From NCBI GenBank assembly GCA_963664225.1, contig OY760937.1, forward strand, positions 5,568,001-5,632,000: a stretch of 64,000 nt of DNA, read 5' to 3'. Under the pieces are notes generated by a model. That model did no database searches. It saw only the letters and a program-made list of their open reading frames with translations, and was not told the DNA's origin. Of the stretch, positions 27,614 to 45,093 are shown in pieces (within the stretch, counting starts at the first letter, position 1; each line of letters opens with the position of its first letter). The stretch is from Verrucomicrobiia bacterium. GTDB taxonomy: Bacteria; Verrucomicrobiota; Verrucomicrobiia; Limisphaerales; UBA1319. The translations under genes and the position numbers were made by a program.

Positions 27614-27678
27614 CGACCGTTTATCATGATCAACTCTTTGCATTTGACTGCATCCACCAAACTTTGCCTGGCATTTTC
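27614..27678 (-). mobile_element. Relic 5' end (65 nt) of an intron-1-like group II intron
   Basis: 57/65 identical, without gaps, to 38032-38096. Confidence 0.85.
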
Positions 27679-36027: not shown

Positions 36028-36129
36028 AATAAAGCCACCTTAATGGTCTGCACCGGAATTCGCAACGCGCATTTGAAACGCGGGAACCGTCCACAAACAG
36101 GCAAGGATGCCAAGAAAGGGGGAAGGCCA

Positions 36130-38096
36130 GTAGAGTAGAGAGGAGAGCACGGAATGAAAGGCGCAAAGGCCAATGACCGCCGCTCACCTCTCCCTCGTCA
36201 AACCGGACATGCAGATTTCCCACATCCGGCTTTCGCCAGAGTCGTCTTTTCCAGATTGCATTCACAATGCCTTCAGGCCCAGTGTTTCGAGATGGGCATA
36301 GAGCGTGACTCCCTGACGGACGCGCCAGCCCCGCTGGCTTCGTCGTCGCAGGTGTTTGCCCAGCCGCACTCTCACGAAGTGGTTGATCTGGCGAAAGGCC
36401 CGTCGGGGTTGTCCGAGGTTGAAGTAGTTGCTCCAACCCCGCAAATGACGGTTGATCCGCCCGATCAACTCCGGCAGCGGCGTATGACTTTGCCCGGCAT
36501 TGATCAGCAGTCGCAACGCCTGCCTCTCCCGTTCCATCGCCTTGCCCGAAGGACACAGGTTGAGGTAGTGAAACGCCCTGCCGAATTGATCCCGGTCATA
36601 CCGGAAGGTGTAGCCCAGAAAGTCCAGGCTTTGCTCGTTGACGTTGACCACCCGGGTTTTGTCCCGGTTGATTTCCAGTGTGAGCCAGCCCTCCAGCTTT
36701 TCCTCAATCCATGCTCGCAGCTTGGGACCCATATACCGGGCCATGACCACAAAGTCGTCCGCATAGCGAACGAGCCGGGCATCCGCCCAGTGCGCCGGTC
36801 CATCCGCCCTTTGGAACAGGTGGTCGAACCAGTGCAGGTATATGTTGGCCAGTAACGGAGAGAGGACTCCGCCTTGCGGCGTGCCCCGATCCCGGCGGTT
36901 GACCCGAGGCGGTTCCTCTCCTTGGGGAGGTTCCACCACGGGGGCCGCCAGCCATTGCCGGATGAGTCCCAGAACCGCGCCGTCCACCACGCGCATCCGC
37001 ACGCAAGCCAGAAGCTTGTCGTGTGGAATGCTGTCGAAGTATCCGGCCAAGTCCGCGTCATACACTGCGTTCTTCCCCTCCTTCAGGTGTTTTTGGAGGG
37101 TTTGCAATGCGTCGTGCGCCGACCGTCCGGGCCGAAACCCGTAGGAACAATCCTCAAAGTCCGCTTCGAAGATGGGTTCCAGAATCAGCAATACCGCCGC
37201 TTGCACCACCCGATCCTTCACCGTCGGGATTCCCAGTGGCCGCAGTTTTCCGTTTGCCTTCGGTATATAGACCCGCCGCACCGGTTGGGCGCGGTAGGTC
37301 TTGTCCCGCAGGCTCTGCCTGATCGTTTCCAGAAACGCCGCTTCATTTTCAGGTGTCGCGGTGATTCGGTCGATGCTCACTCCGTCCACGCCCGGCGCCC
37401 CGCCGTTGCGCCGCACCGCAGCCCATGCCGCTTGCAGCACCTCCGGCAGGAACACCAGTCCGTAGAGACTGTAGAAGCGGAATCGCTTCTCTTGTTTGGC
37501 TTTCCGGCCCAGCTTCTGTCTCAGTTCCTGAAGTTTGGGCGGCAGGATCGCTTCCCGAAAGGAAAGTTCCTCCACCGCTTGTTCTGTCGTGGAAGTTTTC
37601 ACTTCAATCAGCTCCAGTTCCCTCTGACTCGGCTTGACTCTGGCCAGGGCTCCTTGGCTCCATCCCGGCTTGACCGGGATTTCGCAGCTACTATGAGCCC
37701 GTCCGACTCCCTGATCCTGAGCGCCCGCCGGTTATGGCTTCCCGACGTGCGTTCCCCGGTCTCGGGACCGAGGTTCAGGCAGGGTCTCCCAAGTTCCTGA
37801 TGGTTGTTTGGGTACGCGCTGTCTCCTCTGACCCCGGGGAGCTTGAAGGGTGCTTCTGGTCGAATCTTCCCCTCCAATGCTGGCTTCACCTTCTCTGACA
37901 GGCTGGCCACTCCCGCTTTAGAGTAACGAGGCTGAATCGAGTTCGCAGACGCTACGGCTCGCACCTTTGCCTTGCCCAGCTTGAACGCGGCGGGTCGCCC
38001 CACCACGCTTTGGACGCGGCTACATGACTCTCGACCTGTTATCATGATCAACTCGTTGCATTTGACTACAGCCACCAAACTTTGCTTGGCGCTTTC
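36130..38096 (-). mobile_element. Group II intron 1 (RT without endonuclease domain)
   Basis: Domain V AAGCCGGATGTGGGAAATCTGCATGTCCGGTTT, domain VI with bulged A ending CTCTAC, internal RT ORF. The 5' boundary is inferred from EBS1 and target reconstruction. Confidence 0.92.
36262..37602 (-). CDS. ltrA: Group II intron reverse transcriptase/maturase
   Basis: [52 protein letters not shown], domain X (LRGWSNYF). No HNH. Confidence 0.96.
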
Positions 38097-38151
38097 CAGA
38101 TGGCTCAGATAAACACAGAGGGGGGACCGTGAATGATGGTTCGTTTAAATG

Positions 38152-38180
38152 AAAAAGGGGGAGGTTCGAGCCTCCCCCTT
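38152..38180 (-). terminator. Intrinsic terminator of gltA
   Basis: 10-bp stem AAGGGGGAGG/CCTCCCCCTT with a T-run on the minus strand. Confidence 0.8.
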
Positions 38181-43118: not shown

Positions 43119-45093
43119 GTGCGCCAGTGAAATTGGTAGCCTCGTGGGTGAAAGTCCCGCCGGTCGAATTAGACGGTTCACGACCGAAATGCAGCGTCCG
43201 GGACGAGGCCGTGAGGCCGAACCACAAGCGGGACGCTGAAAGAACTGTCGGGTCGTAACGAAAGTAAACCTCATCAAATGAGCTCCGAAACCGAAATAAC
43301 CGGTAAGCCGAGCCGCTACCCGAACGGCGAAGGCAGAAACGCGGCGTCATCAAATCGTCAAATGGGCGCTGTTGATTCCGGCGGAGTCAGCGAGGGCGAC
43401 ACGACAGGAAGGGAAACCAAGGTAAGCTGGGAGATCTCTGGAGGCGGGGCGATAAAGCCTCAACCGCCGGTGCAAGGAGGAACACCCTCCGAGGCCGCAC
43501 GGGCAGCCAGAGAAGTCGGAGTCTTCCATAGTAGCGAAGAAGCTGGGGCGACCAAAACCCCGGCGGAGCCAAGGGAAGGCACTTGGATCGAAGCGAATCA
43601 AAACAGCGAGGGACAGGGAGATGGCCTTGAGGGAGTGGAAACACTTTTTCAACGGATAACAACCCCGATAAAAGTTCAAAAGCTGCAGCGAGCGCTATAT
43701 TGCAAAGCCAAGGCTGAGCCGAAGTATCGGTTTTACAGCCTCTACGGAGAACTGCTGCGGAAGGACGTGCTGGAAACGGCAATGGCCTCCGTGGCGCACA
43801 ACAATGGCGCGGCTGGGATCGACGGGCAGACATGCGACGTCTATCTTGCCAGCGACGAAGCCTGGGACCAATGGCGGAACCAACTGCTGGAGGAGTTACG
43901 CACGAAGAAGTATCGGCCAAGCCCGGTGAAGCGTGTGTATATACCAAAAGGAGACGGGAAGCTGCGACCCCTGGGCATCCCGACAGTGAAAGACCGGGTG
44001 GTGCAGACAGCGGTGGTGATTGTATTGCTGCCGATTCTGGAAGCCGATAGTCATCCGAACAGTTACGCCTATCATCCCAAACGCAATGCCCACCAAGCAA
44101 TGGAGGCGATCAAGAAGGCTACGCTGACAGGACGCGTCGAAGTTATAGACGCGGACTTAAGCGGGTATTTTGACAGCATTCCCCACAGGCGTTTGTTGCG
44201 CATAGTGGCCAAGCGGGTCAGCGATGGAACAATTCTCAAGCTGATCGCAGGATGGCTGCGCGCGCCCGTGAATGAACCGCAAAGCGACACAGGGAAAGGC
44301 GGGACAAAGGGGGGGCAAGGTCAGAATCGACGGGGGACTCCGCAAGGCGGGGTTGTATCGCCGATTTTAGCCAATGCATACCTCAACCAGTTGGATTGGG
44401 AAGTCAACGAACGCTGCGAACTCAAACCCGTGATGGTGAGATACGCGGATGATTTCGTGATACTCGGACAGCCGGGGCAGGGACGGGAACTGATGGAACG
44501 ACTGGAACGATGGCTGAAGCAACGCGAGTTAGTGCTCAACGAGAAGAAGACCCGCTTGGTGGACCTCCGCCAGGATGGCATCAAATTCTTGGGATTCGCG
44601 CTAACAATGCGACAGGGGAAGGGGAAATGGAAATATCCGCATGTGGAACCCCATCCCAAGAGCCAGAAGAAGTTTCGAGACGGGATTCGGGAGAAACTCA
44701 ACCGAAGCACGCTATGGCGTGATATCGGAGAGGTGATTCCCGAGCTCAACAAGAAACTCAAAGGTTGGAAGGGTTACTTTCACTACGGGAACAGCACCAA
44801 GGTGATGGGCCAGATGAACGAATACGTCAGCAGCAAGTTACAACGATGGTTGTGGCGCAAACACGGATGTAGTCGGGCGCAATGGTCCACATACCCCAAG
44901 GAGGATCTCTATGAGCGTTATGGTTTATACCAAATGCCGGAATATGCGGCATGGAAACGATGACGTCGAAGCGATGCAACGTATGATCCCCGGAGAGCCG
45001 GATGCGGGAAAACCGCCTGTCCGGTTCGATGAGGGGCGAAATGCGACGGTCATTGGCCACGGCCATTCAATCCGTCCATTTCGCCTACTCTAC
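43119..45093 (+). mobile_element. Group II intron 2 (RT without endonuclease domain)
   Basis: 5' GTGCG, domain V GAGCCGGATGCGGGAAAACCGCCTGTCCGGTTC, 3' end CTACTCTAC. EBS1/EBS2 match the 5' exon. Confidence 0.95.
43635..44963 (+). CDS. ltrA: Group II intron reverse transcriptase/maturase
   Basis: [39 protein letters not shown], domain X. No HNH. The start (GTG 43635) is approximate; the longer ORF from 43278 runs through ribozyme sequence. Confidence 0.93.
   Translation: METLFQRITTPIKVQKLQRALYCKAKAEPKYRFYSLYGELLRKDVLETAMASVAHNNGAAGIDGQTCDVYLASDEAWDQWRNQLLEELRTKKYRPSPVKRVYIPKGDGKLRPLGIPTVKDRVVQTAVVIVLLPILEADSHPNSYAYHPKRNAHQAMEAIKKATLTGRVEVIDADLSGYFDSIPHRRLLRIVAKRVSDGTILKLIAGWLRAPVNEPQSDTGKGGTKGGQGQNRRGTPQGGVVSPILANAYLNQLDWEVNERCELKPVMVRYADDFVILGQPGQGRELMERLERWLKQRELVLNEKKTRLVDLRQDGIKFLGFALTMRQGKGKWKYPHVEPHPKSQKKFRDGIREKLNRSTLWRDIGEVIPELNKKLKGWKGYFHYGNSTKVMGQMNEYVSSKLQRWLWRKHGCSRAQWSTYPKEDLYERYGLYQMPEYAAWKR

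Follow-up and report, generated by a model that had tools for sequence, protein, structure and literature searches.

Group II introns characteristically begin with GUGYG, a consensus to which exceptions are known. Placed beside intron-binding site 1 (IBS1), this motif is the signature of the 5' end on which boundary-finding pipelines depend (PMC4028801; here and below, published work is cited from the parts of each text that were accessible), and McNeil and Zimmerly have proposed that reverse splicing by mobile introns may depend on IBS1 lying immediately next to GUGYG (PMC4024640). In the accessible parts of reviews and primary papers, altered 5' splice sites are described only for fungal mitochondrial rRNA introns, which splice 1–33 nt upstream of GUGYG (Li et al. 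2011), and for C.te.I1 of Clostridium tetani, which splices 8 nt upstream of it (PMC4424553, PMC4024640). These introns keep GUGYG behind a spacer, have lost exon-binding site 2 (EBS2), the branch A and the reverse transcriptase (RT), splice hydrolytically and are thought to be immobile (PMC4024640). Here, we describe a group II intron that begins with GAAAGCG (intron 1), located in a stretch of 64,000 nt (the window) from a Verrucomicrobiia bacterium (GenBank assembly GCA_963664225.1, contig OY760937.1, positions 5,568,001–5,632,000).

Intron 1 resembles the 5'-shifted introns in having its splice site further from the ribozyme core (by 2 nt, compared with 1–33 and 8 nt) and set by EBS1–IBS1 pairing. 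Unlike them, it starts with G, has no intact GUGYG behind the extra bases and occurs in multiple copies, with EBS2, branch A and RT all retained. An earlier sequence-only reading of the window had stated that 5'-extended organellar introns tend to lose the branch A, and both sources agree (PMC4424553, PMC4024640). The group II intron itself is a known element; the novelty lies in a retromobile lineage whose lengthened 5' end departs from GUGYG although the branch site, EBS2 and the RT are kept. We consider it likely that intron 1 is a working retroelement, composed of a group II ribozyme and an RT/maturase without an endonuclease domain and carrying this lengthened 5' end. The overall interpretation of the sequence-only reading is upheld, with small corrections to the length of EBS1 and to the weight of pairing in fixing the register.

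The class F introns Ge.ur.I1-1, Pe.th.I2 and So.us.I2 (PMC3753933, PMC3552965) share with intron 1 an RT/maturase lacking an endonuclease domain and a IIB-like ribozyme with EBS1 and EBS2, as well as a long domain VI, six nucleotides from the branch A to the 3' splice site and a 3' end in AC (PMC3753933). Ge.ur.I1-1 has the exon motifs AUUCG (IBS1) and CGUGU (IBS2) and alternative 5' sites 9 and 19 nt upstream (PMC3753933); these motifs and spacings resemble the periodic exons found here, for example that of the related locus L003 (...gattcgtgtcgattcgtgtgcattcg/, where the slash marks the splice junction). For Ge.ur.I1-1, the GUGYG consensus served to predict the 5' end (PMC3753933), whereas the leader of intron 1 is GAAAGCG. 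A scan of one genome per prokaryote species gave 213 RT relatives of intron 1, from which 80 loci were kept (L-numbers); such relatives are common in Acidobacteriota, Bryobacterales included.

Extent and ends of intron 1

Across the 5' end of intron 1, the minus strand reads ...ccatctg/GAAAGCGCCAAGC, and GUGYG is absent. The inserted unit begins directly after IBS1 with GAAAGCG, in which only the first G and the final GCG of a GUGCG leader are kept and AAA stands where canonical relatives have U. The sequence-only reading had reported the missing GUGYG and the CCATCTG/GAAAGCG junction, which the sequence bears out, and had placed the splice site before GAAAGCG, two nucleotides longer than the canonical register. 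The position of the inserted unit is fixed there by empty paralogous sites. The source genome (G000) is a single 5.78-Mb contig (C1), in which two uninterrupted sites (C1 1678891/1678892 and 1679336/1679337) read ...gagctctctg/cggttgatt. A filled copy, c2, reads ...gagctctctg/GAAAGCG...CTCTAC/cggttgatt and differs from the empty sites by exactly 1967 nt. The intron starts with G but the 3' exon with C, and the 5' exon ends in g but the intron in C; neither end can therefore be shifted, and only one parse exists. The mobile unit is thus exactly GAAAGCG...CUCUAC. Two further empty sites, similar to the target of the window copy, read ...gagccatctg/yggatttcccc. The truncated relic elsewhere in the window (Table 1) starts in the same register, as had been proposed.

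Four full copies of intron 1 lie at unrelated loci in the source genome. Copies c2, c3 and c4 are mutually identical, and the window copy departs from them at 16 positions; in all four, the open reading frame (ORF) is open and YADD is present. Copy c2 lies in a tandem repeat of ~445 bp (C1 1678742–1679430), one unit of which contains the intron while the next two are empty. Four copies, three of them identical, with open ORFs and exact ends, form the pattern expected of recent retrohoming, and intron 1 has spread recently within the source genome. Its mobility is suggested by the four copies and the empty sites taken together.

Table 1. Features of intron 1 and its surroundings, in window coordinates
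Feature	Position	Strand	Evidence
Complete group II intron (intron 1), 1967 nt, GAAAGCG...CUCUAC	36130..38096	-	Rfam matches; four genomic copies with these ends; empty paralogous sites
7-nt 5' leader GAAAGCG, first G at 38096	38090..38096	-	Sequence; identical in 19/19 full 5' ends from 6 genomes
Helix I(i), 5' strand CCAAG; partner CUUGG 37793–37789, alternative local partner UUUGG	38085..38089	-	Covariation; local hairpin fold
Helix I(i), 3' strand CUUGG, closing domain I	37789..37793	-	Alignment and covariation
EBS2 core CUC, in loop ACUCUAAAG (37924–37916)	37921..37923	-	Exon GAG in 4/4 copies; matching changes in relatives, by eye
EBS1 CAGAGA, in loop of hairpin 37903–37888	37892..37897	-	Rfam alignment, fold, covariation with exon ends
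RT/maturase ORF in domain IV, 446 aa, YADD present	36262..37602	-	Pfam and NCBIfam matches
Domain V hairpin, 33 nt	36200..36232	-	RF00029 alignment; fold -16.8 kcal/mol, z -3.98
Long domain VI, bulged branch A at 36136, then six nucleotides CUCUAC	36133..36196	-	Fold -31.5 kcal/mol, z -3.95, one unpaired A; same 3' end throughout family
5' exon target: IBS1 CAUCUG 38102–38097, IBS2 GAG 38106–38104, TCTG repeats	38097..38120	-	Sequence, copy comparison
3' exon start UGGCC; YGG common to 4/4 copies, continues repeat unit	36125..36129	-	Copy comparison
Relic: first 65 nt of a related intron, 88% identity, beginning GAAAAUG after exon G	27614..27678	-	Alignment to intron nt 1–65
Terminator-like GC hairpin and T run, 3' of citrate synthase gene, ~55 nt upstream of intron	38152..38178	-	Read by eye from sequence, without terminator scan

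Ribozyme, protein and exon recognition

Because GUGYG is a consensus with exceptions, the other features of intron 1 still place it among the group II introns. Domains I–IV match Rfam RF02005 at 37822–38055 (-) over model positions 1–225 of 225 (70.4 bits against a gathering score of 49), and domains V/VI match RF00029 at 36130–36234 (-) (43.1 bits against a gathering score of 40). The predicted branch A is seven nucleotides from the CUCUAC end, and the 3' end is of the AY type. The intact domain V, the bulged A of domain VI and the CTCTAC end had all been recognized from the sequence, and the Rfam matches and folds agree. The encoded protein matches PF00078 (RVT_1; 121.4 bits), PF08388 (GIIM; 50.5 bits) and TIGR04416, an NCBIfam equivalog of group II RT/maturase proteins (387.7 bits, above the cutoff of 300); the closest solved RT structure is that of the GsI-IIC RT (6ar1; E = 1.1e-59). 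Nothing resembling an endonuclease domain was found in the 446-residue protein, for which Pfam gives RVT_1 and GIIM only, in keeping with the earlier description of an endonuclease-less intron.

The length of the leader is anchored by helix I(i). Throughout the family, a CCARG motif immediately after the leader pairs with CYUGG ~300 nt downstream, closing domain I, and the two strands covary (23 rows with G/C, ten with A/U and no exceptions in 33 matched rows, corresponding to about two independent changes on the tree). The distance from the splice site to this helix is 5 nt (GUGCG) in canonical relatives, compared with 7 nt in intron 1. With AAA instead of U between the G and the GCG, the ribozyme must make room for two additional bases separating the splice-site G from those that normally form the epsilon and lambda contacts. 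As a separate observation, CCARG can form either a local hairpin with an adjacent CYUGG or the distal pairing that closes domain I (38060–38096 (-) and family alignment), and both partners covary with it; loci L008–L013 have lost the local partner and kept the distal one. The two pairings may be a pair of alternative structures.

The hairpin GCCU-GUCAGAGA-AGGU (37903–37888) had been singled out as carrying CAGA as EBS1, and EBS1 is indeed found there, with CAGAGA in the loop. It is not short, as had been supposed, but 6 nt long, and is accompanied by a 3-nt EBS2 (CUC) facing a conserved exon GAG. EBS1 pairs with four to six of the last six exon bases, depending on which of the four copies is considered, and EBS2 faces GAG at positions -10 to -8 in all four targets; in relatives with CAC or CGC as EBS2, the exons have GUG or GCG (compared by eye, without a formal count). 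Across the family, EBS1 covaries with the exon ends (own-pair score of 4.31 versus 2.32 ± 0.18 with exons permuted, and a maximum of 3.03 in 2000 permutations), and inside the GAAAGCG clade the observed value was reached in six of 2000 permutations.

Mean pairing at registers 0, +1 and +2 is 4.22, 5.50 and 3.75 in the GAAAGCG clade (n = 18) and 4.35, 5.28 and 4.30 in GUGCG members (n = 20). This shared profile indicates that the G of GAAAGCG stands where the canonical G1 stands. Both groups score slightly better at +1, as the first G of the intron is able to pair with the base that adjoins EBS1 on its 5' side (C, or U in intron 1). Pairing therefore cannot decide the register, which rests on the empty sites in the DNA; the argument from EBS1 pairing in the sequence-only reading arrived at the correct register, but pairing alone cannot exclude a splice site one base further in.

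Lineage, targets and mobility

GAAAGCG is unsubstituted in all 19 full-length 5' ends of this lineage, which come from six Verrucomicrobiota genomes (four copies in the source genome and 5, 6, 2, 1 and 1 in metagenome-assembled genomes, MAGs), even though identity between these genomes over the first 315 nt of the intron is no more than 73–81%. A further four clade members are 5'-truncated. A maximum-likelihood RT tree of loci from the present scan (56 rows after removal of rows more than 97% identical, with intron 2, a second intron in the window, as a distant row) groups the GAAAGCG introns in one clade (ultrafast bootstrap/SH-aLRT 100/96), whose sister, L015, begins with GUGCG (100/99). The suggestion of a lineage with an altered 5' end is thus borne out by a single RT clade with a GUGCG sister. 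Among 401 genomes sampled from the phylum (source included), 12 match domain I; the other 11 have no full-length match from base 1, and the best of them, G023, begins with GUGCG. A metagenome scan with a 14-base word across the 5' end gave at least 123 stretches; among 80 of these, none has the EBS1-hairpin anchor and two fit only a loose motif, by chance. The canonical sisters (L015, the G023 loci L082 and L094, and L024–L026) share with intron 1 the domain I architecture, EBS1 hairpin, helix I(i), domains V/VI, CUCUAC end and target type, but begin with GUGCG, a 5-nt leader.

The intron had been described as splitting a short periodic repeat, and this proved to be general in the family. [quoted passage not shown] An IBS1-like 5-mer occurs 8–11 nt upstream in 40 of 71 distinct sites, compared with 5.7 ± 2.3 in shuffled sequence (maximum of 13 in 1000 shuffles), although sites within one genome are not independent of one another; for the GAAAGCG clade the count is 16 of 18, and the distances peak at 9, 10 and 18 nt. 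The window target is a member of a dispersed motif of ~35 nt, made up of three ~10-nt units followed by YGG, and the insertion of the intron inside the last unit explains the conserved YGG that follows it. The triple TYTG plus YGG pattern occurs at 23 sites in the source genome, compared with three for a reversed control pattern, and these sites share only a short core. Homing into dispersed repeats and a repeat consensus at the insertion sites, both put forward in the sequence-only reading, are thus borne out in the form of periodic IBS1-like units with YGG.

Several observations concern the repeats themselves. The ~35-nt motif can be written aATCTGtGtt tATCTGtGcc aATCTG tGGcttcccc (C1 examples at 633224, 854087, 854507, 268955, 1674860 and 1739660). 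A second type has 9-nt units, with TTCTTTGCG repeated, and further 9-nt arrays lie nearby (ATCCTGTCC...). The spacing of the units, about one helical turn, suggests that they would suit arrayed protein-binding sites.

If intron 1 is a working retroelement, its 5' splice site would be defined by two pairings, one between EBS1 (CAGAGA) and the last six exon bases (NNUYUG), the other between EBS2 (CUC) and the exon GAG. A lariat would be produced when the bulged A in the long domain VI attacks the phosphate 5' of G38096, and the lariat–protein particle would then reverse-splice into DNA sites of the form GAG-N-NNUYUG/YGG at the end of 9–10-nt periodic repeats. Priming of the copying step would need no endonuclease and would presumably use replication intermediates, as it does in other introns of the endonuclease-less kind.

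The most serious competitor, which we nevertheless regard as unlikely, accepts the DNA unit but holds that the RNA is cut elsewhere or by hydrolysis, that no lariat forms from G38096 and that the copies arise via a minor or unusual pathway. The published 5'-shifted introns do splice by hydrolysis (PMC4424553, PMC4024640), a class F intron used alternative upstream 5' sites and made circles in vitro (PMC3753933), and the public sequencing runs available for intron 1 consist only of contigs. However, branch A, EBS2 and RT were all missing from the hydrolytic introns (PMC4024640), and intron 1 keeps all three. Moreover, three identical copies with exact ends, at sites matching both EBS1 and EBS2, look like the product of full reverse splicing by a lariat; that full reverse splicing needs a lariat is established knowledge cited in PMC4024640.

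Very little credence can be given to a spread of the copies within a larger DNA repeat, by recombination or by transposition of a periodic-repeat element, rather than by intron mobility. The targets do lie in dispersed short repeats, and c2 is situated in a tandem repeat; but the flanks of the four copies are alike over only ~25 nt upstream and 3–5 nt downstream, and the neighbouring tandem units lack the intron, the difference being exactly the intron length. Equally improbable is an immobile fossil, a GUGCG intron with a mutated 5' end, as might be read from the missing GUGYG, the 16 differences of the window copy from the other three and the truncated relic nearby, since the leader is shared and the ORF open in all four copies, the leader is identical in five other genomes across 19–27% divergence in domain I, and the empty sites reveal precise insertion; no copy starting with GTGCG, the sign of a mutated copy, was found among the four genomic copies or the five other genomes, and this reading is in practice refuted by the shared leader, open ORFs and empty sites.

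Certain points weigh against regarding intron 1 as a retroelement that splices from G38096. Pairing alone slightly prefers a register one base further in, in canonical members as well, and the empty sites that fix the register exist only in the source genome. The clade is small, with full 5' ends in six genomes and no further genome among 400 others sampled from the phylum. According to the fold, the GCG of the leader can enter a local hairpin, and paired-column counting for the epsilon' partner of the leader bases gave many GU-rich candidates, none of them convincing. Judged by the resemblances given above, the wider family is probably class F. Four public runs (X2, X4, X5 and the metatranscriptome X19, of 23 listed) consist of contigs only, which the intron, as a repeated sequence, interrupts at its ends; no exon junction, lariat junction or RNA end was seen in them, and they speak neither for nor against splicing. 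Branching to a lariat, the nucleotide involved and the way copying is primed are deduced from conserved motifs and from other introns, and the fit of the two extra bases is likewise an inference.

On the evidence for a mobile intron with a lengthened 5' end, the GAAAGCG clade argues against IBS1 beside GUGYG as a strict rule: it has two extra bases and no U2, yet multiple recent exact-ended copies and a conserved branch A, EBS2 and RT. It thereby offers a natural, testable counter-example, in which retromobility goes together with a 5' end longer by two bases. Together with the canonical sister L015 and a GUAGCG (+1) lineage, it forms a comparison set for how the active site positions the 5' splice site, a question that touches the comparison with the spliceosomal 5' splice site. 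Annotation based on GUGYG will miss or mis-bound such introns.

The wider family and neighbouring elements

The family has an unusual plasticity of the 5' end. Eleven leaders occur among the 71 distinct insertion sites (GUGCG, GUGUG, GUACA, GAAUA, GAACA, GAACG, GAGCG, GAGUG, GUCCG, the 6-nt GUAGCG and the 7-nt GAAAGCG), representing at least five separate departures from GUGCG on the tree, each with a GUGCG neighbour; empty sites are available for the source genome only, and the boundaries of lineages other than intron 1 are drawn from homology and copy comparison. The first G is constant, the exon ends in G at 69 of the 71 sites, and the bulged A and CUCUAC end are kept in all members. The register of GUAGCG is ambiguous by pairing. 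No description of bacterial introns with GAAAGCG, GUAGCG, GAGCG, GUACA or GAAUA 5' ends was found in the literature, although class F boundary compilations may already list such ends.

The periodic 9–10-nt arrays may, at least in part, have been built by the introns, with the +1 (GUAGCG) and +2 (GAAAGCG) leaders as fossils of shifted splicing, a speculative idea to which we attach a low probability. Should an intron now and then splice at an IBS-like site lying further upstream, by one repeat or by a few bases, it would take a piece of exon along at its 5' end; reverse splicing elsewhere would add target units upstream of new copies and, if fixed in a lineage, would lengthen the intron at its 5' end. 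If true, group II introns would here be reshaping, in nature, the sites that they target as well as their own 5' termini without losing mobility.

Like intron 1, class C (IIC) and class D (RmInt1-type) introns lack an endonuclease domain and target intergenic or repeated DNA. The 5' consensus of IIC introns has already been relaxed to GUNYG (PMC4028801). In IIC introns, EBS1 is 4 bp long, EBS2 is missing and terminator hairpins are recognized (PMC4024640), whereas intron 1 has a 6-nt EBS1 and an EBS2 and recognizes sequence in a periodic repeat. A lengthened leader in class C or D is not reported in the accessible parts of these texts.

Some relatives differ in their insertion sites. Those of the GAGUG type (L059, L061, L062, L064 and L065, from one Acidobacteriota MAG) lie directly after the 3' arm of a hairpin (GCATACA, a variable loop and TGTATG/), a position reminiscent of the stem-loops that class C introns target. 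A GUACA-type relative is present in seven copies (L053–L055, L058, L060, L063 and L069, from one Terriglobia MAG), all of which follow the same sequence of ~30 nt, ggtaggacagaccatcgc..gcgtggtctg/, evidently a dispersed repeat of that genome. At L072, a second intron begins 9 nt past the CUCUAC end of another, and L020 consists of two 5'-truncated copies in tandem.

In the window, intron 1 is flanked by a citrate synthase gene on one side and a maf gene on the other, both on its own strand. Eight short contigs of X19 match portions of the RT ORF and of domain I (window 36248–38003) at 95–99% identity, with one variant falling in the EBS1 loop at 37891. On this contig evidence, a close relative of intron 1 is present in the X19 sample.

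Intron 2 (window 43119–45093 (+)) is a second group II intron with a distantly related RT and a canonical GUGCG start; the source genome contains 19 full copies with at least 99.6% identity. The 39 nt upstream of it are themselves a repeat, which is also found without the intron. The cumulative GC skew of the contig runs from 0 to about +116,000, rising almost throughout with a flat stretch at 1.2–3.6 Mb; it has no clear pair of minimum and maximum inside the contig, so that the replichores look very unequal or rearranged. The skew gives no clear origin or terminus. Copies of intron 2 are oriented + at 0–0.95 and 2.99–5.6 Mb and - at 1.66–2.19 Mb, roughly following the slope of the cumulative skew.

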